This document shows, one piece after another, positions 4,785 to 44,299 of a DNA stretch of 64,000 bases (the first letter of the stretch is position 1; each line of letters starts with the position of its first letter). Both the position numbers and the translations under genes were made by a program. The stretch covers positions 462,130-526,129 of the forward strand of contig JACKCT010000001.1 in the NCBI GenBank assembly GCA_020633895.1, given 5' to 3'. Under the pieces are notes generated by a model that was not told the DNA's origin, searched no databases, and saw nothing but the letters and a program-made list of their open reading frames with translations. The DNA comes from Deltaproteobacteria bacterium (GTDB lineage: Bacteria > Lernaellota > Lernaellaia > JACKCT01).

Positions 4785-6422
4785 ATGCCGCGTATGGGTT
4801 TTGAAAAGCGACGACGCACGCCGCCGCAGGACGCCGACCGGGCCGCCGGGGGCGTGGCGCGCGTGTTGAAGATCGCCGATGACGAGGGCGTGCCGGTCGC
4901 CGAGACCCCCCCGGACATCCTGCTGTTCTCGCCGCCGCCTTGGCTGGTGACGGGCCCGCCGCTGGGTTTGGCCGCCGTGTCGGCGTACCTCAAGGCCCAG
5001 GGCTGGCGGGTCAAGATCATCGACGGCAACACCAAGGCCTACCACGACGCCAAGCCCAAGGATCAACTCCTATGGCGTTGGGAATATTCGGCGTTTTGGG
5101 AGGACGAGGCCGAGGTGGAGAAACGCTTCGGCGCGATGCTGCGCCGATTGGCCGAGGAAGCCGCGGCGGTCGGATCCTGGGCGATCGGCGTGAACGTGGT
5201 GCATCGCAAGGAGGCGGCGGTGGCCATCTTCCTGCGACGCCTCAAGGAGCTTCGACCGGACCTGCGCATTTTCGTCGGCGGACCGGGAGCGGGTTGGAAG
5301 GAATCCCGCGATCACCTGCGCGAGCTGGCCGGGGACCTGGTGGACGGCTTCGTGGTGGGCGAGGGCGAGGTCGTCTGCGACGAACTGCTGCGACGCATGC
5401 GCAAGGGTGAGAGCCTGGAAAACCTACCCGGATTCATGATCGCCGGGCCCGACGGCGAGGCGAAGTTCAAGCCGGGGCGCGTGATCCTGGACATGAACAA
5501 GCTGCCCGTGCCCGATTTCGGCGACTTCGAAATGGAGCACTACGACGACAATTCCCTGGTCGTGGAATGGAACCGGGGATGCGTCGCGCGATGCACCTAT
5601 TGCTCGGTCAACGACTTCTGGAACGCGTTCCGCTTCAAGGGCGCCAAGGCCGTCGCCCACGAACTCAAGACCCTCCACGACCGCCACGGCATCGAGAAAT
5701 TCGTCATCGTCGACCCCATGGTCAACGGCAACCCCGAGCACCTGGACGCCATCTGTGAGGCGATCATCGAGTCGGGGGTGAAGGTGCGTTGGTCGGCGGG
5801 CATCTCGCCCAACCGGGACGTGCCCAAGTCGACCTTCGTGAAGATGTCGGCGGCGGGGTGCTACCAACTCGAGTTCGGCGTGGACTCGGGATCGAACAAG
5901 ATCCTTCGCAAGATGGGCAAGCGCTTCAAGGCCGACCAGGCCGGACGCATGATGCGCGACGCCCACAACGCCGGCATCGACGTGATGCTCTACCTGATCG
6001 TCGGTTTCCCCGGCGAGACCGACGAGACCGTGCAGGAGACCATCGACTGGCTCGACGAGTACGGCGAGTCCATCGACATGGTGCGTTCGATCAATAGCCT
6101 GACCATCGAGGACGGCACGGCGGTCGAGCAGCGTTCCGAATTGTTCGGCGTGGAGAAGGACAAATCGGACGTGAACTGGCGCGACAACTGGCACGAGTCG
6201 GGCAGCTCGCCCGAGATGCGCAAGGCCCGGGTGGATCGGGTGATCGACAAACTCAAGGAACTGAAAATCCCCATCGAAGCCGAGATTATCGCCGAGCAGA
6301 CCGCCGGCGAGGATGGACCGACACTGCCCGACTGGGGCGGGGCCACGCAGTCCGCCGGACCGAGCGCCGGCGCGGGAACCTTCGGCTGCGCGTCCTTCCC
6401 CACGACGGGTGACGAGGGCTGA
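4785..6422 (+). CDS. B12-binding domain radical SAM protein (class B rSAM, stand-alone module)
   Basis: N-terminal cobalamin-binding-like region ILLFSPPPWLVTGPPLGLAAVSAYL...VKIIDGN; rSAM core VVEWNRGCVARCTYC (Cx3Cx2C); stop TGA overlaps start of next gene (TGATG). Same module architecture as the four repeats inside 6422..14053. Confidence 0.8.
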   Translation: MPRMGFEKRRRTPPQDADRAAGGVARVLKIADDEGVPVAETPPDILLFSPPPWLVTGPPLGLAAVSAYLKAQGWRVKIIDGNTKAYHDAKPKDQLLWRWEYSAFWEDEAEVEKRFGAMLRRLAEEAAAVGSWAIGVNVVHRKEAAVAIFLRRLKELRPDLRIFVGGPGAGWKESRDHLRELAGDLVDGFVVGEGEVVCDELLRRMRKGESLENLPGFMIAGPDGEAKFKPGRVILDMNKLPVPDFGDFEMEHYDDNSLVVEWNRGCVARCTYCSVNDFWNAFRFKGAKAVAHELKTLHDRHGIEKFVIVDPMVNGNPEHLDAICEAIIESGVKVRWSAGISPNRDVPKSTFVKMSAAGCYQLEFGVDSGSNKILRKMGKRFKADQAGRMMRDAHNAGIDVMLYLIVGFPGETDETVQETIDWLDEYGESIDMVRSINSLTIEDGTAVEQRSELFGVEKDKSDVNWRDNWHESGSSPEMRKARVDRVIDKLKELKIPIEAEIIAEQTAGEDGPTLPDWGGATQSAGPSAGAGTFGCASFPTTGDEG

Positions 6423-9400
6423 TGCACGCCCACGACGCCAAGAAGACGATTCTGTCGCCGGAACACCTGATGATCCAGACGACATCCCGGTGCAACTCGG
6501 GGTGCGTCATGTGTCCTTGGCCCGACACCGCCTCCGCCCAGCCCCAGGGCGATATGTCCGACGCCCTTTACCGACGCATTGTCGACGAAGTGCGCGAGTT
6601 TCCCGATCTGTCGCGCATCATGCTCTACCTGATGAACGAGCCCCTGCTCGACAAGAAGCTGCCCGAGCGCGTGAACCTGATGCGCAAGGCCCGGCCGTAC
6701 GATGAAATCTACATCGTCACCAACGGCCTTCTTCTCGACCGGGACTTGGGCGACCGGCTGATCGACTCGGGCCTGTCGTGGCTGTCGATCTCCATCCACG
6801 CCCTGGAACCGGCGACCTACGAGAAGATCACCAAGCGCAAGGACTGGGCCAAGCGCCGCGAGCCGATCGAGCGATTCATCGACCGGGCCATGGCCGCTCG
6901 GGGCGAGGACTTCGTGCAGATCAACATCACGAAGGTGCGCCCCCATATTTCCGACGAGGAATACAACGCCGCCGCCGAGCACTGGCGTTCGCTCGGTGTC
7001 CAGCGCGTCGATCTGGACGACGGCTATATCTCCCGCGCGGGCAATGTGGAGGTCTTCGGCCACCAGCGCCTGTCGACGCGCCGCACCAGCGGATGCAAAA
7101 CCATCTGGGCGTACAAGATGGCCCACGTGCTCTACAACGGCGACGTGCTGCCGTGCTGCATGGACTGGCGGCGCAAGGCGGTGTTCGGCAATGTGGAGCG
7201 CGACGGCGGCCTGCTTAACGTCTGGCGGGGCCAGGGGCGCCACGGCTTCCTGGACAAACTGGGTTCGGGCGACGAGTTGCCCGAGGACTTCCTGTGCGTG
7301 GGCTGCGAGGACGCCATCCCCGCGGAGGGCGCGGAGACGGTCGTCATCAACGAAGCCAAAAGCCCGCCGCCGCCGAAGAAAGCCGCCGTGCCCGTCAAGT
7401 TCGTCTCCAAGTCGGAAGCGGCGGTGACATACGCCGACGGCACTTCCGTCGCCGCGAGCGAGACCATCGTCCTTGCCGCCGCCCCGACCCCGGCCAAGGC
7501 GAACGGCCATTCCAACGGCAGTTCTAACGGCAGTTCCAACAGCAGCGCAAACGGCCATGACAACGGCGCGGCCGCCTTCGACACCGGCAGTTCGAATCCG
7601 ATCATCGCGACCTACGACGCCGCCGTCGACGAGAGCTTCCGCAAAGGCGGTCGCGAGACCGAGCCGACGGATTTTTCGAAGGGCGAGGTGGATGTCGTCT
7701 TCTTCGCGCCGCCGCCGTGGCTGACCAGCGCGCCGCCTCTGGGCTTGGCGTCGATCACCGGCTTCCTGCGCAAAATGGGCTGGCGAGTGAAGGTCGTGGA
7801 CGGCAACGTGCGCCTGTATCATTTCGCCGGGAAGACGCACCAGAACCTGTGGGACTGGGAGCGCGGGCCGTTCTGGGAGAAGTACGACAACGTTGCGGGC
7901 GTCTTCGGCGAAGAATTGCGCAAGATGGCCCGGGAAGTCGCCGAACTGCGGCCGAGCGTGGTGGGCGTGAACTGCGTCTCGCGCAAGGAAGTGGCCTTCG
8001 CGATCTTCCTGGACGAACTCAAAAAGCACCACCCGGAATGCAAAGTCTTTATCGGCGGGTCGGGTATCGGCCACTTCGAATTGCGTCGCCATGTGCGCAG
8101 CATCGTTCGCGACTACATGGACGGGTTCCTGGTCGGCGAGGGCGAGCTGATGATGCACAAGGTCCTCACGCGCATGCGCGACGGACGGACCTATGACGAC
8201 ATCCCCGGCGTGGCGACGTACGTCTTGGAAACCAGCGAGGAGATCTTCACGCCCCAGGAGGAGACGCCGGACCTGGGCATCCTGGCGCCGCCCGACTACA
8301 CCGATTTCGATCTGTCGGCCTATTCGTCGCCGAGCCTTATCGTCGAGTGGAGTCGCGGGTGCGTGGGGCGGTGTACATTCTGCAATATCAACGACCTGTG
8401 GAAGAAGGTGCGTGTCAAGGCGGCCGAGCAGGTCGTCGAGGAGATCAAGACTCTCCAGACCCGCCACGGCACCGAGTATTTCTCCGTCGTCGATCCCATG
8501 ACCAACAACGACGTGGACACCCTGGAAGCCGTTTGCGACGGTCTGATCCGGGAGAAAATCCACATCAAGTGGTCGTGCGGCATGTCGCCCAATCGGCGCC
8601 TCACCGCCGAGCAGTTCCGCAAGATGGCTGCCGCCGGGTGCTATCGCGTGGAATACGGCGTCGAGTCCGGTTCGGACACGGTGCTCAAGCGCATGGGCAA
8701 GGAATACAAGGCCGAAGTGGCCGAACAAATGATCCGTGACGCTCACAACGCGGGCATCATGGTCGTGCTATATTTGATCGTCGGTTTCCCCGGAGAGACG
8801 GAAGAGGACCTTCAGCAGACGATCGCGTTCCTGGAACGCAACGCGAAATACATCTCGCTGGTGCGCAGCGTGAACGGGATGGTCATCATCCACGGCGCGC
8901 CGGTGGAGCGAAAGCCCGAGGTCTTCGGCATCGGCGAGTTGGACCGGCTGGAGGACGGCTGGACCAACCGCTGGAGCGCCGGGGACAACACACCCGAGCT
9001 TCGGACCGAACGGGCGGCGCGGGTGACACGGAAGTTGAACGACCTCGGCATCCCGGTCGAGTTCGAGAATGTGGAAGAGGTTATGCCCAACGCGATGCTC
9101 TACGACAAACGCATGGACCAGACCAAGGAGCGCTTGGCCGCCGTCGAGAAGGATCTGAACGATCTGCTCGGCCTGATGGACAAGCTGATGCGCGGCGAGC
9201 CCACGCGGCAGGTGGTCGGCCACGACCAGTTGGCGTTGGTGCTCTGTCCCGTTTGGGGGGTCGACTCGCCGCCCCTGGGGTTGGCGGCCATGGCGGGCTT
9301 TGTGCGCAATCAGGGCTACGAGCCGATGGTGATCGACTTCAACATCGAACTGTTCCACAAGGCGAACGAAAAGCAAAAACCCTTCTTCGAGGAAGACTCT

Positions 9401-12400
9401 TTCCGTCATTGGACCGACGAGGCCGGCGCCGCGAAAATCGTCGCCGCCTTCACCAAGGAGATCGACGAGCTGGTCGACCGGCTCATCGACTCGGGCCGCA
9501 GCATGATCGGCTTCACGATCTATTCGGCCAACCGCTTGTTCGCCAAGGAAGTCATGCGGCGCATCAAGGCCCGCGATCCCAAACGCGTCATCGTCGTCGG
9601 CGGCCGGGGCGCCCACACGAAAAACGAGCGCCTGCTCTTCCCTCGCGATCTGGTCGACTACTTCATCGTGGGCGAGGGCGAGACGTCGCTGATCCCGTTG
9701 ATGGAGGAAGTCTTCGCCGGCAAATCGGGCCAAGGGCTGCCGGGCGTGGACACCTACGACGGATTCGAACTCACCGGCTACGAGCCGCGCCCGCGCCTGC
9801 ACGACCTGACGCTTCTGCCGCCCCCGGCGTACGACATGCTGCCGCTGGACCTGTATCGCGGCGACGAGATCCCCGTGCAGTTCTCGCGGGGGTGCGTGGC
9901 TCATTGCACCTTCTGCAACGACTCGCACAAGAACACGGGCTTTCGTTCCCGGCCCGGCAAGCACATGGCCGCCGAGATCAAGCAACTGGTCGAAGTCACG
10001 GGACGCAAGCGTTTCCGCTTTAACGACCTGCTGATCAACGGCAACCTGGAAGTGCTCGAGGAGTTGTGCGACGAGCTGATCGCCATGGACCTGGGCATCA
10101 AGTGGATCGCCCTGTTCCAGCCTCGCGGCGACATGAAGGACGAACTGCTTTTCAAGATGGCCAAGGCCGGATGCTACACGGTCAACATGGGCGTGGAGCA
10201 CGGCTCGACGCGCATCCTGAAGATCATGGGCAAGGGCTTCAAGGTCGCCGACATGGAGCGGGCGCTGCGCCAGACGCGGGCGGCCGGCATCAACACGATG
10301 CTCAATTTCATCATCGGCTATCCCGGCGAGACGCGGGAGGATGTCGACGAGACCATCGACTTCATCCGACGCAATCGCGAAAACATCTGCGGCGTCACGT
10401 CGGTCAACGCGTGCATCCTGCTTGAGGATTCGGCCATCGAACGCCGCGCGATCAAGCTGGGCGTCACGTACGACGACTATGCGACGCGGGACGTGAACTG
10501 GGTCCTGGGCGACAACACGCCCGACGAGCGCCAGGCGCGTCTGCGTAAGTTCGTGGAGTTTTTGGAAGCCGAGAACATTCCGTACCTGGTCACGAATCTC
10601 AAGGAACGCGCGGCGAACCTGGACGACCTGTCCATCGACGACATCGCCGCCGCGCCGGCCAACGGCGCCTCCAACGGTGAAACGCACGCCGTTCCCGGCG
10701 AATTGACGAATGTCGATCCCGAGCAGTTCGAATCGGTGGACGGTTTCATCCAAACCCGCGAGACCGGGTCGAACATCGCCGCCTACGCGACGCACGGCGA
10801 CCTGGGCGGCGGCCACGCCGAGGACGACGGCTTTGATCCGGCCAAGGGCGAGCCGCGATGGGAGGTCATTCCCACGGACTACGCGGACGTCATCTTCATC
10901 AAGTGTCCCCCCTGGGGCGTGGACGTCCCGCCGCTGGCCATTGCCTACCTGTCCGAGATGTGCCGCCAGGACGGCCTGAAGGTGCAGGCGGTCGACCTGA
11001 ACGTGAAGGTCTACAACCGCTGTCACGATCGCGGCCTGTGGGATATGGACCGCTACGCCGAGTGGGCCGACCCGAAATTCTTCCCCAAGACCTACAAGGA
11101 TTTGTGGGAGTGGACCGGGCACTACCTCAAGCAGATCGCCGAACATCCCGCGCCGGTCATCGGCCTGTCCACCAACACGGCCAACTACCGCTTCACCGTC
11201 GAGACGGCCCGCCGCCTCAAGGAGATGGCGCCGGAGAAGACCATCGTCATCGGCGGCACGGGTATTTCCAACAGTTTCGACGTGGAAGAACTCACGCCCA
11301 CCGACGCGGACTACCTCTTTTTCGGCGAAGCGGACATGGGCATCGCCAAGTTCGTGCGGGCCGTCGTGGACAAAAAAGATCCGGGAGACATCGAGGGCCT
11401 GATCAAGGTCGGCACCGAGTTTACTTACAGCTCGGTGCAGCGGGCGATTGTCGAGAAGGGCCTGAAGGTCGCCAACCCGACGATGATCGAACTGAACCTG
11501 AACGAGTACAGCTCCTCGGCCGTGCCGCTGCTGGCCAGCCGAGGATGCGTACGCCGATGCACCTTCTGCAACGACCATCAGATCTATCAGAAGTACCGTT
11601 ATCGCGAGGCCGAGGACGTGTTCAAGGACATGGAGTGGCACGTCAAGAATCGCGGCACGTCCCACTTCGCTTTCCTGGACCTGCTGCTCAACGGCAACAT
11701 GAAGACCCTCGTGGGTTTCTGCGATCTGGTCATCGAATCGGGCTACAAGGTGGCCTGGGGCGGGCAATGCATCGTGCGCAAGGAGATGCGCGCGGACGTG
11801 TTGCAGAAGATGGCCAAGGCCGGGTGCATGAGCATCGTGTACGGCATGGAGAGTTTCTCGGATGAAACGCTCAAGCTCATGCGCAAGTACTACACGCAGG
11901 AGTTGGCCAAGCGCGTCCTGACCGACACGAAAGAGGCGGGCATCGAGCCGATCATCAACATCATCTGCGGCTTCCCCGGCGAGACCGAGGAAGACTTCAT
12001 GCAGACCTACAACTTCATCAAGGACAATCCGGACATCGTCGGCCAGGTGGCGTCGGTGTCGCCGTGCCTGATCAACCTGGGTTCGGAACTGTTCGATCGC
12101 TACAAGGATTTCGACATCCGCTTCCCCGAGGAAGACGGGTCGGTCAAGTGGTACACGGGTGATAAGTCCAACACCTACGACATCCGGCTGCGTCGGGTGA
12201 TGATGATTACCGAGCTTCTCGCCAGCCGCGACAAGCACATCCACACGGTTAACATCTACGACAACGACGACAAAAAGGTCATGCGCGCCCGAGACGACAA
12301 GGCACGCTTCGACCGGGCCGTCGCGTCGGGTGGGTCGTTGCTCGGGGCGCCGCTGGTGGACGGGTCATCCCGCGCGGAGGCGGGGGAGTCGCCGGGAAAA

Positions 12401-14053
12401 TCTGAGACCGATGTCGCGGCGGCGGCGGCCTCGGTCGAGAATGCGCTGCCGCAAGTCGCCGTTCCGCAAAATGGAGCGCCGACGGTCGAAATCCACGCGC
12501 CGGGCACGAACGGCCATGCGAACGGTTCGACAAACGGCCACGCCAATGGTCGAACAAACGGGCACGGTAACGGCGTTGGCCAGCACCACATCGAGGACGT
12601 CGCGCCGGTGCAAAAGGCCGACATCGTTCTCGCGCTGCTGCCGCCTTGGGGTGTGAATTTCCCGCCGCTGGGTATCGCCAGCCTGGCCGCGTCGGCGCGG
12701 GACGCGGGCTTCAGCGTTTACGCCCGGGACATGAACATCGAGTGCTTCGATTATTGCGGCGAGTACCTGCGTTCCTGGTGGGAGCCGGAAAACCTCAAGT
12801 ATTGGTCGCCGGGCAAGCGTCTGGACGAAGTCTCCGCGTTCATCATGCCCAAGATCGACGCCTTCATCGAGGACGCCATCCGCCGCCGCCCGCTCGTGGT
12901 CGGCCTGTCGACGAACGAATCGAACCTGACCTTCTCCACCCGCGTCGCCAAAAAAATCAAAGAGGCGCTGCCCGATTGCAAAATCATGTTGGGCGGGCCG
13001 GGGGTGGCGTGGCCGGCGGATCGGCAAAAACTCGTCGGCGAGGCCTTCGACGCGTGCATTATCGGCGAGGGCGAGGACAGCCTGAACCAGGTGCTGACCA
13101 AGATGAAGGCCGGTGAGTCGTTGGACGATGTGAGCGGCCTGGAGTGGCTTTCCGGCGAGATCAAGAAGATTCCCGACAAGGGCGATCTGGTCAAATCGCT
13201 GGACGACCTGCCGCTGCCGCTGTTCGACGAGTTCCCGCTGCATATGTATCAGACCAAGCAGTTCCCGCTGATGATCGGCCGGGGTTGCACCAACCGATGC
13301 ACTTTCTGCAACGATCCGCAGATCACCCCGAAGTATCGCTTCAAGTCGCCCGAGCGCGTGCTCGACGAGGTGATGGCCTACAAGGAGCGCTACGACGCCC
13401 ACGACTTCCACTTCTGCGATCTGCTCATCAACGCCCACATCCGCAACCTGCGTGACTTCGCCCAGATGGTCGTCGACAAGGGCGTGCGCATGGCGTACTC
13501 GGGGCAGGCGCTGATCAAAAAACAGATGGACGACGAAACGCTGCGTATCATCGCCAAGTCGGGATGCACCAGCATGGTCTTCGGCGTGGAGAGTTTTTCC
13601 GATCGCGTGCTGACCGACATGCGCAAGGGCTATACGGTGCAGCAGGCCAAGGAATGCATCGAGCGGGTGCATAACGCGGGGATCAAGGTGATCGTCAATC
13701 TGATCGTCGGCTTCCCGACCGAGACGGAGGTGGAATTCCAGGAGACGATCGATTTCCTACGCGAGAACCACGGCCTCATCGATTCGATCTCGGCCCTGTC
13801 GGCGTGCATCGTGACGGCGCAGTCGGATCTGGAGAAGAATCCGGACAAATACGGCATCGTCCTGCCCAAGCCCGAGCATTGGTGCCAGTGGTACTCCAAG
13901 GACGGCGCCAACACCTACGACGTGCGCCAGGAACGGCTCTATCGCATGCTCGACGTGCTCAATGAGTTGAAAATCTCCCACGGGATGACGAATCGTTATT
14001 TGGAGATGATCGACGAGCGCCAATCGGAAGGTGAGCAACCGGCGGCCCATTGA
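6422..14053 (+). CDS. giant (2543 aa) multi-domain radical SAM fusion protein: SPASM-type rSAM domain + four tandem B12-binding rSAM modules
   Basis: Single uninterrupted 7.6-kb ORF. Domain 1 (nt ~6422-7320): TSRCNSGCVMCPW + LPCCMDWRRK...LCVGCE SPASM-like. Modules 2-5 begin at ~7689, ~9229, ~10885, ~12620, each with (F/L)xPPPW/PVWG..PPLGLA B12-like N-terminus and RGCxxxCTFCN rSAM motif (IVEWSRGCVGRCTFCN, VQFSRGCVAHCTFCN, LLASRGCVRRCTFCN, LMIGRGCTNRCTFCN). Inter-domain linkers are Asn/Gly/His/Ser-rich (NGHSNGSSNGSS..., NGHANGSTNGHANGRTNGHGNG). Confidence 0.7.
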   Translation: MHAHDAKKTILSPEHLMIQTTSRCNSGCVMCPWPDTASAQPQGDMSDALYRRIVDEVREFPDLSRIMLYLMNEPLLDKKLPERVNLMRKARPYDEIYIVTNGLLLDRDLGDRLIDSGLSWLSISIHALEPATYEKITKRKDWAKRREPIERFIDRAMAARGEDFVQINITKVRPHISDEEYNAAAEHWRSLGVQRVDLDDGYISRAGNVEVFGHQRLSTRRTSGCKTIWAYKMAHVLYNGDVLPCCMDWRRKAVFGNVERDGGLLNVWRGQGRHGFLDKLGSGDELPEDFLCVGCEDAIPAEGAETVVINEAKSPPPPKKAAVPVKFVSKSEAAVTYADGTSVAASETIVLAAAPTPAKANGHSNGSSNGSSNSSANGHDNGAAAFDTGSSNPIIATYDAAVDESFRKGGRETEPTDFSKGEVDVVFFAPPPWLTSAPPLGLASITGFLRKMGWRVKVVDGNVRLYHFAGKTHQNLWDWERGPFWEKYDNVAGVFGEELRKMAREVAELRPSVVGVNCVSRKEVAFAIFLDELKKHHPECKVFIGGSGIGHFELRRHVRSIVRDYMDGFLVGEGELMMHKVLTRMRDGRTYDDIPGVATYVLETSEEIFTPQEETPDLGILAPPDYTDFDLSAYSSPSLIVEWSRGCVGRCTFCNINDLWKKVRVKAAEQVVEEIKTLQTRHGTEYFSVVDPMTNNDVDTLEAVCDGLIREKIHIKWSCGMSPNRRLTAEQFRKMAAAGCYRVEYGVESGSDTVLKRMGKEYKAEVAEQMIRDAHNAGIMVVLYLIVGFPGETEEDLQQTIAFLERNAKYISLVRSVNGMVIIHGAPVERKPEVFGIGELDRLEDGWTNRWSAGDNTPELRTERAARVTRKLNDLGIPVEFENVEEVMPNAMLYDKRMDQTKERLAAVEKDLNDLLGLMDKLMRGEPTRQVVGHDQLALVLCPVWGVDSPPLGLAAMAGFVRNQGYEPMVIDFNIELFHKANEKQKPFFEEDSFRHWTDEAGAAKIVAAFTKEIDELVDRLIDSGRSMIGFTIYSANRLFAKEVMRRIKARDPKRVIVVGGRGAHTKNERLLFPRDLVDYFIVGEGETSLIPLMEEVFAGKSGQGLPGVDTYDGFELTGYEPRPRLHDLTLLPPPAYDMLPLDLYRGDEIPVQFSRGCVAHCTFCNDSHKNTGFRSRPGKHMAAEIKQLVEVTGRKRFRFNDLLINGNLEVLEELCDELIAMDLGIKWIALFQPRGDMKDELLFKMAKAGCYTVNMGVEHGSTRILKIMGKGFKVADMERALRQTRAAGINTMLNFIIGYPGETREDVDETIDFIRRNRENICGVTSVNACILLEDSAIERRAIKLGVTYDDYATRDVNWVLGDNTPDERQARLRKFVEFLEAENIPYLVTNLKERAANLDDLSIDDIAAAPANGASNGETHAVPGELTNVDPEQFESVDGFIQTRETGSNIAAYATHGDLGGGHAEDDGFDPAKGEPRWEVIPTDYADVIFIKCPPWGVDVPPLAIAYLSEMCRQDGLKVQAVDLNVKVYNRCHDRGLWDMDRYAEWADPKFFPKTYKDLWEWTGHYLKQIAEHPAPVIGLSTNTANYRFTVETARRLKEMAPEKTIVIGGTGISNSFDVEELTPTDADYLFFGEADMGIAKFVRAVVDKKDPGDIEGLIKVGTEFTYSSVQRAIVEKGLKVANPTMIELNLNEYSSSAVPLLASRGCVRRCTFCNDHQIYQKYRYREAEDVFKDMEWHVKNRGTSHFAFLDLLLNGNMKTLVGFCDLVIESGYKVAWGGQCIVRKEMRADVLQKMAKAGCMSIVYGMESFSDETLKLMRKYYTQELAKRVLTDTKEAGIEPIINIICGFPGETEEDFMQTYNFIKDNPDIVGQVASVSPCLINLGSELFDRYKDFDIRFPEEDGSVKWYTGDKSNTYDIRLRRVMMITELLASRDKHIHTVNIYDNDDKKVMRARDDKARFDRAVASGGSLLGAPLVDGSSRAEAGESPGKSETDVAAAAASVENALPQVAVPQNGAPTVEIHAPGTNGHANGSTNGHANGRTNGHGNGVGQHHIEDVAPVQKADIVLALLPPWGVNFPPLGIASLAASARDAGFSVYARDMNIECFDYCGEYLRSWWEPENLKYWSPGKRLDEVSAFIMPKIDAFIEDAIRRRPLVVGLSTNESNLTFSTRVAKKIKEALPDCKIMLGGPGVAWPADRQKLVGEAFDACIIGEGEDSLNQVLTKMKAGESLDDVSGLEWLSGEIKKIPDKGDLVKSLDDLPLPLFDEFPLHMYQTKQFPLMIGRGCTNRCTFCNDPQITPKYRFKSPERVLDEVMAYKERYDAHDFHFCDLLINAHIRNLRDFAQMVVDKGVRMAYSGQALIKKQMDDETLRIIAKSGCTSMVFGVESFSDRVLTDMRKGYTVQQAKECIERVHNAGIKVIVNLIVGFPTETEVEFQETIDFLRENHGLIDSISALSACIVTAQSDLEKNPDKYGIVLPKPEHWCQWYSKDGANTYDVRQERLYRMLDVLNELKISHGMTNRYLEMIDERQSEGEQPAAH

Positions 14054-14070: not shown

Positions 14071-14143
14071 TTCAGATCCGCGACCGTCAGGGAGCGGGTT
14101 GCCGCGACGAACTAACCCGCTTGCTGACGCGCGCGGTTCTGAA
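14071..14143. repeat. REP-like imperfect palindromic intergenic repeat, family A (short 73-bp form)
   Basis: TTCAGAtCCGCGACCGTCAGGGAGCGGGTTG...CAACCCGCttgctgaCGcgCGCGGtTCTGAA; the same unit recurs at 41286..41358 and in longer forms at 21969, 46924 and 48431; sits between convergent gene ends. Confidence 0.5.
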
Positions 14144-16103: not shown

Positions 16104-16176
16104 CAGTCCCAACGGGAATCGAACCCGTGTTTTCGGCGTGAGAGGCCGACGTCCTAGGCCGCTAGACGATGGGACC
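16104..16176 (-). tRNA. tRNA-Glu (anticodon CUC)
   Basis: Minus-strand sequence GGTCCCATCGTCTAGCGGCCTAGGACGTCGGCCTCTCACGCCGAAAACACGGGTTCGATTCCCGTTGGGACTG closely matches the canonical bacterial tRNA-Glu cloverleaf; anticodon loop CUCUCAC gives CUC; TTCGATT T-loop. Confidence 0.7.
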
Positions 16177-16265
16177 ACAACGCACAATCGATGTGCAAGA
16201 AACTCGATGTCGGGGGCGTCCCCGCGTCGGGCTTCCGACGTTCGACCCTCGGGGAGCCAAGACGA

Positions 16266-16336
16266 TTCAGGGACTAGGATTCGAACCTAGATAACAGGAG
16301 TCAGAGTCCTGGGTCTTACCATTAGACGATCCCTGA
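16266..16336 (-). tRNA. tRNA-Gln (anticodon CUG)
   Basis: Minus-strand TCAGGGATCGTCTAATGGTAAGACCCAGGACTCTGACTCCTGTTATCTAGGTTCGAATCCTAGTCCCTGAA: 7-bp acceptor stem TCAGGGA/TCCCTGA, D-stem GTCT/AGAC, anticodon stem CAGGA/TCCTG with loop CUCUGAC, T-arm CTAGG-TTCGAAT-CCTAG; U-start typical of tRNA-Gln. Confidence 0.7.
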
Positions 16337-21968: not shown

Positions 21969-22067
21969 TTCAGAGCCCCGACCGGTAGGGACGGGTCTAC
22001 GCCAACCGGGCACGCCACGTTCGTGCAGAGGCGGACCGGACCGCTTACTACCGTGCGCGGCTCTGAA
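21969..22067. repeat. REP-like palindromic repeat, family A (long variant)
   Basis: TTCAGAGCCCCGACCGGTAGGGACGGG...CCAACCGGGCACG...CGTGCGCGGCTCTGAA, lying between convergent ends of the phosphoesterase and purF. Confidence 0.45.
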
Positions 22068-24694: not shown

Positions 24695-25858
24695 ATGTTG
24701 AACTTTGATTTGACCGAACAGCAGAACATCCTGCGGGATCAGATCCGCAATTTCGCCGAAAAAGAGATCCGCCCCGTCGCCGAGGAATTGGATCGCACCG
24801 AGACCTTTTCCGTCGACCTGACGCGCAAGATGGCCGACCTGGGCCTGTTCGGCATGTTCGTTTCCGAGGAATACGGCGGCGCGGGGATGGACTACATCAG
24901 CTACATCATCGCGGTGGAGGAACTCTCCCGCGTCGACGCCTCCCAGGCCGCGACGGTAGCCGCAGGAAACTCGCTGGGCATTGGGTTGATCTACTATTTC
25001 GGCACCGAGGAGCAGAAGCGCGAATGGCTGCCCCGCCTATGCCGAGGCGAGATCCTGGCCAGCTTCGGCCTGACCGAACCCAACGCCGGTTCCGACGCCT
25101 CGGCCAGCAAGACCCGCGCGGTCCAGGACGGCGACCATTGGGTCATCAACGGCTCCAAGATCTTCATCACCAACAGCGCCTCCGAGATCGCGGGGGTGTG
25201 CATCGTGCAGGCCGTGACCGGCAAGGCGGACAACGGCAAGCCGGAGATTTCCTGCTTCATCGTTCCCCGCGACACGCCCGGTTTCACCGCCAAGGCCATG
25301 CACAACAAGATGATGTGGCGCGCCTCGGACACCGGCGAATTGACGTTCGAGGATGTGCGCGTGCCGGCGACAAGCATGCTCGGCCACCAGGGCAACGGCT
25401 TCAAGCAGATGATGCAGACCCTGGACGGCGGGCGGCTGTCCATCGGCGCGATGGGCTTGGGCGGCGCTCAGGGAGCCTACGAGGAAGCGCTCAAGTACGC
25501 CCAGGAGCGCACGCAGTTCGGCAAGAGCATCGGCGATTTTCAGGTCAACGCCTTCAAGTTGGCGGATATGGCGATGGAGATCGAGATGGCGCGGCTGCTG
25601 CTCTACAAGGCCACGTGGCTGCGTGACCACCACCGCTCCTTCGGCAAGGAAGCGGCCATGGCCAAGCTCTATTGCTCGGAGGTCATGCGGCGCGTGACGC
25701 ACTCGGCGGTGCAACTCCACGGCGGTTACGGCCTGATGCAGGAATTCCCGGTCGAGCGTTTCTATCGCGACCAGCGCCTGCTCGAAATCGGCGAAGGCAC
25801 CAGCGAGGTGCAGCGCATCGTCATCGCGCGGCATCTGGGGTTGAAGCCGATTTTCTAG
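24695..25858 (+). CDS. acyl-CoA dehydrogenase (short/branched-chain type)
   Basis: 387 aa, typical ACAD layout: GLFGMFVSEEYGGAGMDY, FGLTEPNAGSDA, C-terminal YRDQRLLEIGEGTSEVQR catalytic-base region. Confidence 0.9.
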   Translation: MLNFDLTEQQNILRDQIRNFAEKEIRPVAEELDRTETFSVDLTRKMADLGLFGMFVSEEYGGAGMDYISYIIAVEELSRVDASQAATVAAGNSLGIGLIYYFGTEEQKREWLPRLCRGEILASFGLTEPNAGSDASASKTRAVQDGDHWVINGSKIFITNSASEIAGVCIVQAVTGKADNGKPEISCFIVPRDTPGFTAKAMHNKMMWRASDTGELTFEDVRVPATSMLGHQGNGFKQMMQTLDGGRLSIGAMGLGGAQGAYEEALKYAQERTQFGKSIGDFQVNAFKLADMAMEIEMARLLLYKATWLRDHHRSFGKEAAMAKLYCSEVMRRVTHSAVQLHGGYGLMQEFPVERFYRDQRLLEIGEGTSEVQRIVIARHLGLKPIF

Positions 25859-25873
25859 CCGCGTAGTCGCGGC

Positions 25874-25913
25874 GGACTAACGGATACCTTCGGTATCCTT
25901 CACGCTGACGCGT
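25874..25913. repeat. stem-loop repeat, family B (GGACTAACGGATACCTTCGGTATCC..CACGCTGACGCG)
   Basis: Perfect hairpin GGATACC-TTC-GGTATCC right after the acyl-CoA dehydrogenase stop; a reverse-orientation copy lies at 51806..51844. Confidence 0.45.
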
Positions 25914-26018
25914 TGTCGAAAGACCCAATGTGGTTGTCGCGTTGCGCTGCTTGGGAATGAACGATGCCGGCCTTGCCGGTAATCTACAGAATAGGTATTT
26001 AGAACGAAGAATAGGAAT

Positions 26019-26046
26019 CGTGTCATCCTGAGCAACGCGAAGGATC
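26019..26046. repeat. left arm of 28-bp perfect inverted repeat flanking the GIY-YIG gene
   Basis: CGTGTCATCCTGAGCAACGCGAAGGATC; exact reverse complement found at 26389..26416. Confidence 0.8.
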
Positions 26047-26342
26047 TAGGTCCAACCTCGTACTCCGCTTAGGTCTTCCCATTCCGGGTTTCGAGATTCA
26101 ATTAATTCAATTTTTTTACGCCGGGTCCAACCCTTGATTTGCTTTTCGCGTGCGATGGCGCGGTCGACATCGGGATAGCGTTCGAAATAAACGAGTTGGT
26201 CGATCTTATATTTGGCCGTAAATCCCTTTTGCGTTCCGGTTTGATGTTCCGCCACACGACGATACACATCATTCGTCACCCCGACATAAAGCGTGCGGGA
26301 GTGATTTGTCATGATGTAGACCCAGTAGGACTTCGAACCCAT
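26046..26342 (-). CDS. GIY-YIG nuclease family protein (small stand-alone type)
   Basis: 98 aa; YWVYIMTNHSRTLYVGVTNDVYRRVAEH GIY-YIG motif; gene fully enclosed by 28-bp inverted repeats. Confidence 0.85.
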   Translation of the reverse strand: MGSKSYWVYIMTNHSRTLYVGVTNDVYRRVAEHQTGTQKGFTAKYKIDQLVYFERYPDVDRAIAREKQIKGWTRRKKIELIESRNPEWEDLSGVRGWT

Positions 26343-26388: not shown

Positions 26389-26416
26389 GGATCCTTCGCG
26401 TTGCTCAGGATGACAC
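26389..26416. repeat. right arm of 28-bp perfect inverted repeat flanking the GIY-YIG gene
   Basis: GATCCTTCGCGTTGCTCAGGATGACACG, reverse complement of 26019..26046. Confidence 0.8.
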
Positions 26417-26442
26417 GGTTGTCCGCCTCCTCACACTGGTCC

Positions 26443-27517: not shown

Positions 27518-29302
<1,785 letters not shown>

Positions 29303-36496: not shown

Positions 36497-36531
36497 TCAG
36501 CCTGATTTCCAGGCGTAACGACTAGTCGCGA

Positions 36532-36891
<360 letters not shown>

Positions 36892-36950
36892 CAATCCACT
36901 CCTGTTGCCCGTCACGGCGATCGTGACGGGGCTTGGGTTCACGACAGTTT

Positions 36951-38228
36951 TTACGGCGCGACCGACGCCGGCGGATCGCTCGCCGTGGCGAGTTCCTCGA
37001 CCCATTCCTGAAGCGACGTTCCGCCTTCCTCGATTTCGAAATAGGTGTCCGACGTGGACGGCGCATGGCCGGTGCCTTCGATGAAGAACGTGGACCAGCG
37101 GCCCGTCGGCTCGAGCAGGTTGTCGCGCAAATCCTCCAGACCCGCCGCGTACGCCTCGCCGGTGATCGGATCGCCGACCTGGAAGAAGTCGCGAATCGTC
37201 TCGTCCTCCAGGTACGAATACAGGCCGAAGGTGCTGTTCGGGTATTCCGTCGCGTTGTACTTCTGGATGTTCTCCAAGCCGTCGAACTTCGTGCCGCAGT
37301 CATCGCAGCCGGGCGGGGGCACGACGTTCCACAAGGAGCGCAGGCCGAATTGCAGCACCGGGCTGAGCACGTCGTTGTCGGCCGGCAGGGGAGCCGAGTC
37401 GTTGAAGACGTTCACGTCGTTGCCCGGGAACGCCTGGGCGAATTCCAGGAATCCCAAGTTGGTGCCGAAGCCGCCGGCACTCTGGCCGATCAGGAAGACC
37501 GTCTGTACGCCGTCGAAATACTCGCCGAGCAGGTCGGCGATGTTGCGGATGTTGATCAGGCCGACGAACTGCTGCTTGCCGGAGGCGCCTTTGATTTCCA
37601 CATCGGTCGCATTGCCCGAATGCACGTCGCCGGTGCAGTAGGGGACAAAGACATTGTGCCAACCGGAAAGCGCGCTCGTCTCGGCCGCCGCCGCGCCGCC
37701 GTCGGCGAAGACGCCCTTGGTCAGCTCCCCGGACTTGGCGGAGGTGAATTCGGGTTCGCCGAATTTTTTGGGATTGCCCGCGCAAGTGCCCGCGTCAAAA
37801 CAGGCGCCGCCACCCTGCATGAAGATCATCAGCTTGTTGGCGTTTTCCTGCAGACGCACGGCGATGCCGGTCGCCGATCCGTCGCGGCAGATGTTGCCGG
37901 GCACCGGCAGCCAGACCCACTCGCCCGCGTTTTCATCCGCGTCGGCAAACGGTCCGCCCACCGGGAAGAACGGCGCCTCGGCCGTGTCGTCGTCGCCGGT
38001 GTCGTCATCCGCGGTGTCGTCATCGGACGTATCGTCGTCGTCGGTGTCGTCGTCATCGTCATCATCGGTGATGTCGTCGTCGCCGGTGTCGTCATCGATG
38101 GACGAACTGCTGTCGTCGTCGTCATCATCGTCGCCGCAGGCCGCGCCGGCGATAGCCAGCATCAACAAGGCCGACAGGACGAATAGCAAGAACCATAAAC
38201 GGCGCTCGGCGCCAGGGGAACGTCTCAT
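36951..38228 (-). CDS. pectin acetylesterase / Notum-like (PAE family) esterase lipoprotein with Asp-rich N-terminal linker
   Basis: Lipobox AGAACGDDDDDD; GGGACFDAGTC, YCTGDVHSGN and GQSAGG (nucleophile Ser) motifs typical of the PAE/Notum alpha/beta-hydrolase family; AGGAG RBS. Confidence 0.7.
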   Translation of the reverse strand: MRRSPGAERRLWFLLFVLSALLMLAIAGAACGDDDDDDDSSSSIDDDTGDDDITDDDDDDDTDDDDTSDDDTADDDTGDDDTAEAPFFPVGGPFADADENAGEWVWLPVPGNICRDGSATGIAVRLQENANKLMIFMQGGGACFDAGTCAGNPKKFGEPEFTSAKSGELTKGVFADGGAAAAETSALSGWHNVFVPYCTGDVHSGNATDVEIKGASGKQQFVGLINIRNIADLLGEYFDGVQTVFLIGQSAGGFGTNLGFLEFAQAFPGNDVNVFNDSAPLPADNDVLSPVLQFGLRSLWNVVPPPGCDDCGTKFDGLENIQKYNATEYPNSTFGLYSYLEDETIRDFFQVGDPITGEAYAAGLEDLRDNLLEPTGRWSTFFIEGTGHAPSTSDTYFEIEEGGTSLQEWVEELATASDPPASVAP

Positions 38229-38401
38229 ACCCGTGCTCCTTTATCATCATGGGCCATGGGGCCCGGCAAAATGTCGATCGGTCTATTAAACGAGGGCTTT
38301 TAGCGCTTGTAAAGCGGAATCGCCGAAGGAATCCGCGGGGATCAACGAGAAAACGGGCGACCCGAAGGCCGCCCGTGTCGTCTCGAAACTAGGGAGAAGG
38401 G

Positions 38402-39649
38402 CTACGGCCCGACGGACGCCGGCGGCTGGTTGAGCGTGGGCGTGGCCAGCTCCGAAACCCAATCGGTGAGCATCTTGTCGCCCACTTCCATGGTGAAGTA
38501 TTCAGGCGAGGTCACGATGCCGTGGCCGGTGCCCGGCGCGATGTACACGGACCACTGCTCGGTGTCCTTGAGGACGTTGTTGCGCAGGTCGACCAGGGAA
38601 TTCTCATAAGCGTTGGCGTCGATGGCCACATCCTCGCCGTAGAGATTGCGCATCGTTTCGTCACCGGCGTAGGAGAACAGGCCGAAGGTGCTCTCGTCGT
38701 ATTCGAGGGCGATGAACTGCTGAATGAACTCCATGCCCGAGTTGCCCACGCCGCCGGTGCAGTTTTCGCAGTCCTCGGGAAGTTCGATGCCCCACTGCAG
38801 CTTGAAGCCGGTCTGCTCCAAAACCGAGAAGACGTTGTTGTCCTTGGGCATGGGGAACGAGTCGTTGAACACGCGGATGGTGTTGTCGTCGAAGGCCGCC
38901 TCGAACTCGATGGCCGCCCAGTTGGTGCCCATGCCGCCGGCGTCCTGGCCGACGATGAACACGCGCTTGAGGCCCGTGAAGTACTGGCCGATCAGGTCGG
39001 CGACATTGCGCATATTGCGGATGCCCACGTAGATCTGACGGGCTTCCACGCCCTCGGCCTTGCCGTTTTCCTCAAAGCCCACGTGCAGATCGCCCGTGCA
39101 ATAGGGGATCACCACGTTGTTCCAGTTGGCGAACTCGCTGACGTTGGACTCGGAGCCGGTGCCGTCCGAGAGGATGCCCGCGTTAAGCGACGTGTCGGCC
39201 TGCATCTGCGTCTTGCCGTACTTGGCCGGGTTGGCGTCGCACGAGTCCTTGTCGGCGCAGGCGCCGCCGCCTTGCAGGAAGATCATCAGGTCGTCCGAGC
39301 CCTCGCCCTCCTGCAGGCGCACCGCGATGCCCGTCTGGGAGCCGTCGCGGCACAGGTTGCCGACCACGGGGATCCACACCCAGTCGCCGACGTTGGCCTC
39401 GGCCTCGGAGAATGTGTCCGCGATTGTTGTGTCGTCGTCGCCCAGGTCGTCGTCGTCATCGTCGACCGTGTCGTCATCCGACGTGTCGTCGTCAGTCGTA
39501 TCGTCATCGTCCGCGGTGTCGTCGTCCGCGGTGTCGTCGTCGTCATCGTCATCGCCGCTGCTGGCGCAGGCCAAGCCCAACGCCGTCGTCGCCGCGAATA
39601 ATCCCACCAACACGATCACCCACAAAAGGGTGCGCCGTTGCCTATCCAT
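38402..39649 (-). CDS. PAE/Notum-like paralog lipoprotein with Asp-rich linker; nucleophile motif GQDAGG (Ser to Asp)
   Basis: Same architecture as 36951..38228 (lipobox LACASSGDDDDDDD; GGGACADKDSC; YCTGDLHVG) but the GxSxG Ser is Asp; GGAGG RBS before the ATG at ~39649. Confidence 0.7.
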   Translation of the reverse strand: MDRQRRTLLWVIVLVGLFAATTALGLACASSGDDDDDDDTADDDTADDDDTTDDDTSDDDTVDDDDDDLGDDDTTIADTFSEAEANVGDWVWIPVVGNLCRDGSQTGIAVRLQEGEGSDDLMIFLQGGGACADKDSCDANPAKYGKTQMQADTSLNAGILSDGTGSESNVSEFANWNNVVIPYCTGDLHVGFEENGKAEGVEARQIYVGIRNMRNVADLIGQYFTGLKRVFIVGQDAGGMGTNWAAIEFEAAFDDNTIRVFNDSFPMPKDNNVFSVLEQTGFKLQWGIELPEDCENCTGGVGNSGMEFIQQFIALEYDESTFGLFSYAGDETMRNLYGEDVAIDANAYENSLVDLRNNVLKDTEQWSVYIAPGTGHGIVTSPEYFTMEVGDKMLTDWVSELATPTLNQPPASVGP

Positions 39650-39697
39650 CCGGTGTACCTCCAAGGCGGCACTGACCGCCAAGACCATTTCATTCAG

Positions 39698-41263: not shown

Positions 41264-41285
41264 TGAAGTTTACAACCCACGACAA

Positions 41286-41358
41286 TTCAGAGCCGCGCGC
41301 GTCAGCAAGCGGGTTGCCGCGACAAACCAACCCGCTCCCTCACGGTCGCGGCTCTGAA
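41286..41358. repeat. REP-like palindromic repeat, family A (short 73-bp form)
   Basis: TTCAGAGCCGCGCGCGTCAGCAAGCGGGTTG CCGCGACAAA CCAACCCGCTCCCTCACGGTCGCGGCTCTGAA; the arm variants are swapped left/right relative to the 14071 copy. Confidence 0.5.
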
Positions 41359-41385
41359 AGACCGAAGGCAAATCACCATCAAGGT

Positions 41386-41610
41386 CTACGACGAAATCAC
41401 CGCGCCGATGATGATCGCCAGGCCGATGATCACCGCGCCGACGATGAGCGCGAGGGCCATGTTCTGGTCGTCCTCGATCTCCTTGCGGATCGAAAACGGC
41501 GCGATCTTCACTATTGCCCAGAAGGCCAGGGAGAAGATCACAATGCCGATCGCGGTGTAGACCAGCGTCTGCACCAGGGGGGCGAGGGGGACAAGTTCGG
41601 TGGTGTTCAT
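41386..41610 (-). CDS. DUF350 domain membrane protein
   Basis: ~74 aa, two TM helices (LVYTAIGIVIFSLAFWAIV; ALALIVGAVIIGLAIIIGAVI); start taken at MNTTELV. Confidence 0.65.
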   Translation of the reverse strand: MNTTELVPLAPLVQTLVYTAIGIVIFSLAFWAIVKIAPFSIRKEIEDDQNMALALIVGAVIIGLAIIIGAVISS

Positions 41611-41659
41611 GGTGTCTCCTGACCTGTTCGTTCCAAGAAAACGGCGAGGCACATCGCCG

Positions 41660-41875
41660 CTATTTTCCGCCGCCAAGGCCGCCGCCCATATGGGAGCGCG
41701 TGCCGTACCATAAAAAGAATCCGGAGGGCCGATGGCCGCTGCCGTCGCGCAGGCTGATGCCCTGTTGTTCGTTGAGTTCGGACGCGCCGACGTTGAGCAG
41801 CGTCAAGGCACCGGCGAAGATCGTCCCGGCGACCATGGCGCCGATGAGAAAGGTGATCACGCCTCGTCCAAGCAT
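41660..41875 (-). CDS. small hypothetical membrane protein
   Basis: 71 aa, one TM helix, Gly-rich C-terminus; sits between the DUF350 and DUF4178 genes on the same strand; weak support. Confidence 0.3.
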   Translation of the reverse strand: MLGRGVITFLIGAMVAGTIFAGALTLLNVGASELNEQQGISLRDGSGHRPSGFFLWYGTRSHMGGGLGGGK

Positions 41876-41925
41876 GGGGACTCCTTCGACGTCGGAAAAC
41901 TGGTGTTATGCATGGGGGTTGTCCA

Positions 41926-43904: not shown

Positions 43905-44299
43905 CAGGACGCCTCGCCCGGCTTGCGTTCGTGGCTGGGGGGCTCCATGCCCCGGGCGATGGAGGTGACTCGGTGCTCCTCGGAGGGAAGGGCGGCCACC
44001 AGACCCTCGACGATGCGCTCCCCGATGGAGGGGTCGCCGCAGGTGAACACGTCCAATGTCGCCGCGCCGCGCTCGGGCCAAGTGTGGATCGTGACATGGC
44101 TTTCGGCCAGGATCACCACGCCGGTTACGCCCTGGGGTTCGAAACGGCGGAAGTGCGTTGCGAGGATGGTGGCTCCGCCGTCCCGGGCGCAGCGGCTCAG
44201 CGTCGCCTCCAAGGCGGATTCGTCGTCCAGCAGCGCCGCGTCGACCCCGAAAAGGTCGAGCAGATGGTGCGTGCCGAGTGCGGAAGTATGAGGCATCAC
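43904..44299 (-). CDS. speH: S-adenosylmethionine decarboxylase proenzyme (class 1 small type)
   Basis: LGTHHLLDLFGVD and ESHVTIHTWPE motifs (conserved self-processing site region of bacterial SpeH/SpeD). Confidence 0.85.
   Translation of the reverse strand: MMPHTSALGTHHLLDLFGVDAALLDDESALEATLSRCARDGGATILATHFRRFEPQGVTGVVILAESHVTIHTWPERGAATLDVFTCGDPSIGERIVEGLVAALPSEEHRVTSIARGMEPPSHERKPGEAS

Follow-up and report, generated by a model that had tools for sequence, protein, structure and literature searches.

Dispersed, often paired hairpin repeats in a Deltaproteobacteria genome match the published class 3 hairpins with a CnGA foot

The stretch of DNA considered here (the window: 64,000 nucleotides of the 582-kb contig JACKCT010000001.1 of assembly GCA_020633895.1, a metagenome-assembled genome (MAG) labelled Deltaproteobacteria bacterium) carries a family of short hairpin repeats that resemble repetitive extragenic palindromes (REPs). 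An arm of about 30 nt is present ten times, in four inverted pairs, one decayed pair and one degenerate solo arm. These occupy six sites, termed c1 to c6, in the 64 kb covered; the resulting density of about one site per 10 kb describes these six sites and is not a genome total. The original prediction, made from the letters of the DNA, had listed five imperfect palindromes and proposed that the family occupies five or more sites. All five were recovered at their positions, the sole shift being that the fourth starts at 46923 and not 46924, and a decayed solo arm at 44780-44813, which was not on that list, adds a sixth.

The neighbours of all the copies are ordinary housekeeping genes. Convergent genes flank four of the sites and tandem genes the other two, with none in a divergent context, and all six adjoin at least one gene 3' end, as had been predicted for copies at convergent or tandem gene ends. 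The first site, c1, is a short inverted pair at 14071-14143, composed of unit A (GACC-GTCA-GGGA; 14071-14100, plus strand, 44.1 bits by the covariance model described below) and unit B (GCGC-GTCA-GCAA; 14114-14143, minus strand, 42.8 bits), with their feet outward and a spacer of 11 nt. It is flanked by the stop codons of two convergent genes, that of a 2543-aa radical-SAM open reading frame (ORF) at 14053 and that of crcB at 14159. The second short inverted pair, c2 (41286-41358), has the reverse order, with unit B on the plus strand (41286-41315) and unit A on the minus strand (41329-41358), scoring 46.8 and 48.3 bits; it is flanked by two minus-strand genes, a DUF350 gene with its 3' end towards the pair and a spermidine-synthase-like gene with its 5' side towards it.

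The remaining sites are longer or more decayed. The long inverted pair c3 (21969-22067) separates convergent metallophosphoesterase and amidotransferase/PRTase genes (Pfam assignments). Its plus-strand unit (21969-21998, 28.6 bits) is a GGTA-loop variant with a 1-nt deletion, its minus-strand unit (22038-22067, 36.7 bits) is a GCAC/GTAA variant, and the approximately 40 nt between them contain CCAACCGGGCACG. The decayed long pair c4 (46923-47055) lies between acyltransferase and Ni-superoxide-dismutase (SOD) genes, both on the plus strand; it retains an intact type A unit (46923-46952, plus strand, 48.4 bits), followed by an insert of about 75 nt beginning with CCAACCCGGCACG and by a truncated, degenerate right arm (about 47030-47055) of which the outer half and the foot are gone. 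The long inverted pair c5 (48431-48554), between convergent peroxiredoxin and nitroreductase genes, combines a plus-strand unit (48431-48460, CCCC-AAGC-GTCA-GCGC-GGGG, 33.1 bits) with a minus-strand unit (48525-48554, CCCC-GACT-GTCA-GGGA-GGGG, 39.5 bits); here the stem runs on inward (GGGGTTGTCG / CGACAACCCC) around an insert of about 60 nt. Finally, c6 (44780-44813, plus strand) is a degenerate solo unit in which the foot reads CTGA, 1 nt is inserted and the stem is broken (nhmmer E = 2.3e-7; covariance model 14.9 bits, E = 0.13); it lies within the 123 nt that separate a zf-CDGSH gene from a convergent aldo/keto-reductase-like gene. The long forms were originally said to share a CCAACC(C/G)GGCACG core; this holds for the copies at 21969 and 46923, the only two in which the core was found, and fails for the copy at 48431, from which it is absent.

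The number of copies in the window is far above that expected by chance. A 31-nt arm pattern allowing up to 3 mismatches gave 3 matches, compared to 0.00 expected from shuffles of the window, and the 12-nt outer motif TTCAGAGCCSCG, allowing up to 1 mismatch, gave 8 matches, compared to 1.13 expected, a count of 8 being reached in 0 of 100 shuffles. An nhmmer profile of the arm returned exactly ten arms (E = 4e-10 to 7e-6), with the next match at E = 1. The covariance model, run over the whole window with filters off, identified nine intact units (E <= 6e-5, 28.6-48.4 bits) and, as a tenth, the degenerate unit at 44780-44809 (E = 0.13). No further convincing copy emerged from this window search, the rest, none of them inspected, scoring at most 15.8 bits (E >= 0.08), the best of them, at 58968-58989, included. 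The similarity could in principle reflect chance or local duplication, with no wider family behind it; given these counts, the recurrence of the unit elsewhere (at least 115 stretches from other genomes, plus 97 viral contigs), and the presence of the family in the literature (PMC6006769), this explanation has next to no probability. The repeats thus form a dispersed, intergenic, REP-like family, as was originally proposed.

The repeat unit is smaller than was first thought. The 73-bp palindrome had been taken as the unit, but it proved to be a pair of units: the unit itself is an arm of about 25-30 nt, which forms a hairpin of its own and often occurs solo. Read 5' to 3', the arm consists of (T)TCAGA, one linker base, CCGC, G-x1-x2-C, GTNA, G-y1-y2-A and GCGG, and the arms of the window can be written as TTCAGAGCCGCGACCGT[C/A/G]AGGGAGCGGG and variants thereof. 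The hairpin consensus after the CAGA foot is CCGC-GA-CC-GTNA-GG-GA-GCGG, wherein CCGC pairs with GCGG (4 bp) and x2-C with G-y1 (2 bp), the two short helices being separated by a 2x2 internal loop of G.A and x1.y2. The terminal loop is the four-base GTNA, and the foot, of the form CnGA, is unpaired. CAGA serves as the foot in 9 of the 10 window arms, with CTGA in the degenerate arm; elsewhere, in matches where the foot was not fixed by the search pattern, it is CAGA, CCGA, CGGA or TAGA.

Base-pair covariation supports the unit hairpin as genuine. A covariance model built from 50 diverse units was run on 100 sources, yielding 184 matches and 129 distinct aligned units. Several stem positions are fixed by the search pattern, and only the free columns 10/25, 13/22 and 14/21 inform covariation. 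Among the 129 units, the inner pair is C-G in 86, G-C in 36 and A-U in 3, columns 10/25 hold G-C in 113 and C-G in 8, and 98.6% of the stem cells are paired. The covariation score of 0.139 compares with 0.030 in shuffles (reached in 0 of 500) and with at most 0.031 when the partners are slid. The non-Watson-Crick position x1.y2 is also coupled (A.G 101, C.A 41, A.A 12 and C-G 6 in a regular-expression tally of 178 units). Since the two variable positions commonly occur in all four combinations, this coupling does not stem from one inherited subfamily; the two arm variants of the original prediction, ACC/GGG and CGC/GCA, are two of the four types. The member of the family is therefore the arm and not the palindrome, many copies elsewhere being solo and others forming tandem arrays.

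Hairpins of this kind have been described once, by sequence analysis, together with the class 3 Y1 HuH enzymes (Quentin et al. 2018, BMC Genomics 19:475, PMC6006769). The authors defined class 3 as a small class of HuH-Y1 proteins in Planctomycetes, Acidobacteria and Proteobacteria, with a tnpA-Y1 of about 178 aa and the motifs NHVH, W[TA] and YV[VI]xEQ, the genes being rare (in <0.3% of species). They reported that "atypical secondary structures with a CnGA foot" flank the class 3 TnpA-Y1 genes in Solibacter, Planctomyces and Legionella, counted about 600 copies of the structures in Solibacter usitatus, and called for experiments. Their Table S1 lists CAGAGCCGCGACCGTTAGGGAGCG and CAGAGCCGCGACCGTCAGGGAGCG for Solibacter (the latter for ABJ83822.1), CCGAGCCGCGACCGTAAGGGAGCGGA for Legionella pneumophila, folded as .....((((..((....))..))))., and ACGAGCCGGAAGCGTCAGCGACGGGC for Planctomyces limnophilus. 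The window arm agrees with these structures letter for letter, and their fold is identical to the one derived here.

By this match in sequence and predicted fold, the window repeats are shown to belong to the published class 3 hairpin family, which makes them known at the level of sequence description. The CAGA foot fits CnGA, the hairpin CCGCGACCGTNAGGGAGCGG has the same ((((..((....))..)))) shape, the host phyla correspond, and in both cases the repeats are dispersed (about 600 copies in Solibacter, six sites per 64 kb in the window). In the published cases, however, the structures flank a transposase gene and occur as abundant single hairpins, whereas no such gene is in view in the window and most of the units are joined in heterotypic, inverted pairs (73-135 bp) that carry an additional GGGTTG/CAACCC stem extension. 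The host, a "Deltaproteobacteria" MAG, likewise falls outside the sampling of that study. What is new here is the REPIN-like paired arrangement and a host lineage not previously sampled. No later work on class 3 was found in the literature searched, and a literature search with the literal sequence returned one irrelevant primer match only.

The occurrence of the unit in other genomes was assessed by scanning one genome per species for CAGAGCCSCGNNNGTNAGNNAGSGGG. Among the matches listed, the MAGs are labelled as Planctomycetota, Acidobacteriota (Bryobacterales, Solibacter), Verrucomicrobia, Dehalococcoidia, Gemmatimonadales and Alpha-, Beta- and Deltaproteobacteria, a distribution that, judged from these labels, appears to match the host groups of class 3. 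Many of the units are solo, some form inverted pairs, and a few are arranged in direct tandem arrays with periods of 34-39 nt; the genes neighbouring three such arrays (L018, L095 and L061), considered as possible REPtrons, are ordinary. Legionella adelaidensis carries the unit with a CCGA foot, in feet-inward pairs. The feet-inward unit is held by one PLSDB record of strain NCTC12735 (L116, 3955-4030) and by others of the same strain; the records named "plasmid 8, 9, 11, 13, 19, 23" bear dnaK, atpD, valS, proS and murB and look like pieces of the chromosome.

The 97 viral contigs that contain the unit are from IMG/VR. In two related phages (L191, 1983-3853; L196, 10117-12131) it lies between the portal, scaffold and major-capsid genes, after the portal and after the capsid gene. 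In the same two contigs, the reverse strand of the unit translates to PLPDGRGS-type peptides in spurious ORFs. Two further contigs (L193, 13100-13480; L139, 1340-1700) carry 5-6 tandem copies of a 67-69-nt composite repeat, comprising one full unit and truncated unit starts (CCGAGCCGCGCCTGT). These arrays were considered as CRISPRs and rejected, the "spacers" being themselves repeated. A CRISPR array was also rejected for the window, where the copies are dispersed, as it was for the arrays elsewhere, which have repeated intervening sequence.

The arrangement of the units within pairs shows a characteristic pattern. The two arm variants had been predicted to occur in swapped left/right order, and indeed the arms of c1 and c2 match in inverted orientation at 29/31 and 29/31 positions, while their 11-nt spacers (14102-14112 and 41317-41327) match at 10/11 positions directly and 3/11 inverted. 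Such a flip/flop relationship could have arisen by loop inversion through exchange within the inner stem. The 11-nt loop of both copies opens with CCGCGAC, which is also the start of the unit stem. All four intact pairs of the window join two different unit variants with the feet outward, and as a result the long hairpin is imperfect while each unit keeps its own hairpin. In other loci, 33 pairs have their feet outward and 9 inward, and 17 pairs are of the same type and 17 of different types (34% same expected at random). A rule that pairs are always heterotypic was accordingly rejected: heterotypic pairing is common, but it is not a rule. Di Nocera et al. (2013, PMC3733652) noted a preference for heterodimers in other REP families and related it to the fact that long, perfect palindromes are unstable.

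The imperfect hairpins that had been predicted for every copy were recovered by RNA folding for three of them. For the copies at 14071, 41286 and 48431, the predicted structures are long imperfect hairpins with energies between -45 and -68 kcal/mol (z between -5.4 and -7.4; -48 kcal/mol and z = -6.0 for c1, z = -6.5 and -6.8 for c2, z = -5.4 and -7.4 for c5). The fold of c3 reaches z = -2.4 only, and that of c4 (46923-47055) is no better than shuffles (z = -1.3 and -1.5). As DNA, for which whole-pair folding covered the two short forms, c1 and c2 fold with -28.0 and -27.7 kcal/mol (z = -5.3 and -5.8). A single unit as DNA takes the shape ((((..((....))..)))) at -6.2 and -6.3 kcal/mol, which is not significant relative to shuffles (z = -1.8 and -0.8). 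The complementary strand gives a weaker fold (-4.1 versus -6.2 kcal/mol), with neither value significant relative to shuffles; the difference fits, weakly, a single active strand.

The insertion sites were compared in close and distant relatives, a check that had also been suggested with the original prediction. In two sister assemblies (99.56% and 98.7% identical), every compared element is at the same place, c4 is identical, and the sole difference is a 2-nt deletion in the right arm of c1. Three distant syntenic relatives, in which the peroxiredoxin is 55-62% identical, were compared by gap length, the intergenic DNA being unaligned. At the CDGSH/reductase junction (c6), the 123 nt of the window correspond to 13, 6 and -4 nt in the relatives; at the peroxiredoxin/nitroreductase junction (c5), 235 nt correspond to 45 nt in one relative (L127); and at the acyltransferase/SOD junction (c4), 305 nt (263 nt with the gene start assigned in this analysis) correspond to 95 nt in another (L126). 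One distant relative carries three tandem units at a different junction. Because the gaps of the distant relatives are short at the same sites and one of them carries units elsewhere, the elements look like insertions that differ between lineages.

Such insertions might be thought of as miniature inverted-repeat transposable elements (MITEs), the palindromes of 73-135 bp being deletion derivatives of a DDE-type insertion sequence that spread by cut-and-paste. The elements are short, intergenic and non-coding, they have inverted ends (TTCAGAG...CTCTGAA), and the syntenic relatives show short gaps. The MITE-like spread raised in the original prediction would, however, leave a target-site duplication, and direct repeats flanking 36 feet-outward pairs are distributed as in the shuffled control (0 nt in 23, 1 nt in 8, 2 nt in 3 and 3 nt in 2 pairs, compared to 25, 8, 2 and 1). 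Moreover, arms are also found solo or in direct tandem array, unlike the terminal repeats of MITEs, each arm has its own covarying hairpin, and no parent insertion sequence was seen. This origin is consequently very improbable. "Peel and paste" chemistry is established for the HuH-Y1 enzymes of IS200/IS605, and the lack of a target-site duplication fits this type of transposition and argues against a DDE-type MITE.

A second alternative places the primary role at the RNA level, with hairpins in 3' untranslated regions that terminate transcription or block 3' exonucleases, as has been proposed for the REPs of E. coli, and that were spread by selection. In favour of such a role, all six window sites adjoin a gene 3' end, four of them between convergent genes, the pairs form very stable RNA hairpins (z = -5.4 to -7.4), and in feet-outward pairs each of the converging transcripts would meet a sense unit first. 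The wider contexts point in the same direction: crude gene calls based on third-position G+C on the fetched loci placed 50 unit clusters in tandem, 28 in convergent and 12 in divergent contexts, with 14 apparently coding, i.e., 78 versus 12 across phyla.

The details of the sites nevertheless fit a terminator poorly. No T-run follows any copy, the tails reading GCGACG, AGACCG, GGAGCG and ATCTTT, and in a terminator scan of 41000-49000 no terminator-like call covers the unit of c2, c4 or c5. Just one terminator-like call (44841-44829, minus strand) falls near a copy, in the gap of c6 on the 3' side of the unit; it represents the tail hairpin belonging to the aldo/keto-reductase-like gene. Upstream of c5, the peroxiredoxin gene has a separate terminator-like hairpin at 48365-48389, with a T-rich tail behind it. 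A strand-specific RNA role would predict an orientation bias, and it is not supported by the solo units, which relative to the upstream gene are sense in 15 and antisense in 15 tandem contexts (6:9 in convergent contexts). Simple stability, furthermore, requires no conserved sequence, yet the foot, the internal loop and the ends of the loop are conserved across phyla. No Rfam family matched the copies at its gathering threshold; when 41240-41400 was searched permissively, the only matches were generic microRNA hairpin models at 15-19 bits (thresholds 67-90) and Acido-Lenti-1 at 12.7 bits (threshold 37). Neither the terminator role suggested earlier nor a strand-specific RNA role is supported, and a primarily RNA-level function is unlikely.

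Among known DNA-level systems, the window repeats resemble in organisation the REP/REPIN elements of E. coli and Pseudomonas fluorescens, which are paired with RAYT enzymes. Both are short, G+C-rich, imperfect hairpins with an unpaired 5' tetranucleotide, situated in intergenic DNA, mostly past gene 3' ends; both form inverted doublets, commonly heterodimers, with no target-site duplication, and for both a single-copy Y1 HuH enzyme is the proposed partner. Nevertheless, the window foot is CAGA and not GT[AG]G, GTNA occurring only as the loop, the stem has just 4+2 bp with a conserved purine-rich internal loop, and window-type sequences hardly vary between phyla, in contrast to REPs, which are usually specific to a lineage. 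The class 3 enzyme has a Y....Q motif, compared to YxxNP in RAYT. A classical RAYT-type foot was rejected on these grounds, the 5' GT[AG]G not being present at the foot of the stem, and the canonical tnpA-REP (RAYT) partner envisaged in the original prediction gives way to the published partner, a class 3 TnpA-Y1 (PMC6006769).

The subterminal hairpins of IS200/IS605 elements (IS608, ISDra2) are likewise imperfect DNA hairpins, of which one strand is read by a Y1 HuH enzyme with a tetra- or pentanucleotide nearby, and they too move without duplicating the target site; in its Y motif, class 3 is similar to class 1 (PMC6006769). Those hairpins, however, occur one per end of an element that contains tnpA and/or tnpB, whereas here free units and pairs without cargo are observed, presumably numbering in the hundreds. 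The GTAG- and CGTC-tagged REPs (PMC3733652) are also small tagged palindromes, mostly head-to-head dimers and often heterodimers, between convergent or tandem genes. The CGTC repeats differ in their 8-9-bp stems starting with A/T pairs, 4-5-nt loops, CCA tails and a tag outside the stem, whereas the window unit has CGTC/GTAG-like letters inside the loop region and a CCGC stem; membership was rejected on the stem, loop and tail rules. Integron attC sites were rejected as well (ends TTCAGAG / CTCTGAA and not RYYYAAC ... GTTRRRY, copies 1.5-19 kb apart in both orientations among housekeeping genes), as judged by the sequence, no attC model having been run.

Taken together, the best reading is that the repeats are non-autonomous REP/REPIN-like elements of the published class 3 hairpin family, moved as single-stranded DNA by a Y1 enzyme, to which we assign a probability of roughly 70%. 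That a class 3 enzyme mobilises them in this genome is inferred from the literature (PMC6006769). In the proposed mechanism, the unit would fold when the DNA is single-stranded, e.g., at the replication fork, and a class 3 Y1 enzyme, the gene for which would lie elsewhere in the genome, would recognise the foot and the irregular stem. The enzyme would then cut and rejoin the strand, moving units or pairs into intergenic DNA with no target-site duplication. Copies would persist where they are least harmful, past gene 3' ends, and subsequently decay, any effect on transcripts being secondary.

Several observations weigh against mobilisation by a class 3 enzyme. Neither the window nor some 1.8 Mb of repeat-bearing loci yielded a Y1/HuH gene in searches with motif regular expressions, with E. 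coli RayT (phmmer) and with a profile built on 18 RAYT/TIRYT sequences, no class 3 query being among them. The profile sequences were taken from Additional file 5 of Di Nocera et al. (PMC3733652); nothing better than E = 0.5 was found with it in the window and loci, the sensitivity of these searches for class 3 being uncertain. Class 3 enzymes and their hairpins are known from sequence analysis only, and their describers call for further work (PMC6006769). In the sister assemblies, at 98.7-99.6% identity, no insertion polymorphism was seen among the compared elements. Within pairs, the long DNA hairpin (-28 kcal/mol) would outcompete the unit hairpins (-6 kcal/mol). Finally, the near-identity of the unit across phyla is atypical for REP/RAYT pairs, which normally diverge between lineages, and could point to a different conserved partner; the ordinary explanations for such wide near-identity are mis-binning of MAGs and horizontal transfer. 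As for individual enzyme candidates, one (L098, 4466-4900) has no Pfam family, those in L116 and L122 are hypothetical Legionella proteins without a HuH motif, and a candidate between two units (L012, 6921-7460) shows no HuH or catalytic-Y motif by direct reading.

A further explanation is that the conserved hairpin is the binding site of a host or phage protein other than a Y1 enzyme, such as a nucleoid protein, a topoisomerase or a protein that binds particular DNA or RNA structures. Among the matches listed, the 25 nt are almost unchanged in Legionella and in MAGs whose labels span at least six phyla; they recur in the viral contigs, including between the structural genes of the two related phages; class 3 genes are rare (PMC6006769); and the covarying non-Watson-Crick position (A.G or C.A) suggests a recognised shape. 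No candidate protein is known, however, while the published association is with class 3 Y1 genes (PMC6006769), and the MAG labels may err by mis-binning, horizontal transfer of a mobile system also explaining the spread. We consider such a site improbable. It is similarly doubtful that the 25-nt foot and hairpin constitute a shape-specific module kept across at least six phyla and phage operons and read by a conserved partner (a domesticated class 3 Y1 host factor or another protein), with heterotypic pairing under selection. If so, heterotypic pairing would be selected in order that each unit hairpin survives and the long palindrome stays imperfect.

Other features of the window were recorded alongside the repeats. 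The radical-SAM ORF next to c1 (6422-14053, plus strand) encodes 2543 aa with five radical-SAM domains, four B12-binding domains and a SPASM domain, and consists of five tandem paralogous modules with no stop between them. Two tRNA genes lie on the minus strand at 16104-16336. Another repeat, unrelated to the hairpin family and about 90 nt long, occurs at two intergenic positions (25855-25945 and 51774-51863) in opposite orientations, with 78-88% complementarity and a GGATACCTTCGGTATCC hairpin. A 98-aa GIY-YIG nuclease ORF (26046-26342, minus strand; Pfam PF01541, E = 4e-16), of lower G+C by eye, lies in an intergenic gap of 584 nt, flanked by inverted repeats of 31 nt (26016-26046 / 26390-26420, 97%), and by this layout looks like a small selfish cassette. 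A thiamine pyrophosphate (TPP) riboswitch (55.2 bits, 27527-27643) precedes a 555-aa ORF (27635-29302). Two paralogous pectinacetylesterase-like genes (36951-38228 and 38402-39688, within 36522-39688 on the minus strand) adjoin long GAT/GAC (Asp-rich) tandem repeats, and a contig of a sister assembly (L119) begins in this region, at window position 38854.

For the class 3 family, the present scan indicates that the hairpin is found in more phyla than were first reported and in phage genomes, and its recognition avoids the mis-annotation of spurious PLPDGRGS-type ORFs. The window offers a clean set of material: intact pairs, a decayed pair and a decayed solo unit, short gaps in relatives, a covariance model and a fixed structure. 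The covarying non-Watson-Crick position is a feature that an enzyme could read, and the units provide a substrate design for biochemistry. The constancy of one hairpin sequence across its hosts is the feature that keeps alive the more interesting reading, in which a conserved partner would recognise the shape of the unit.

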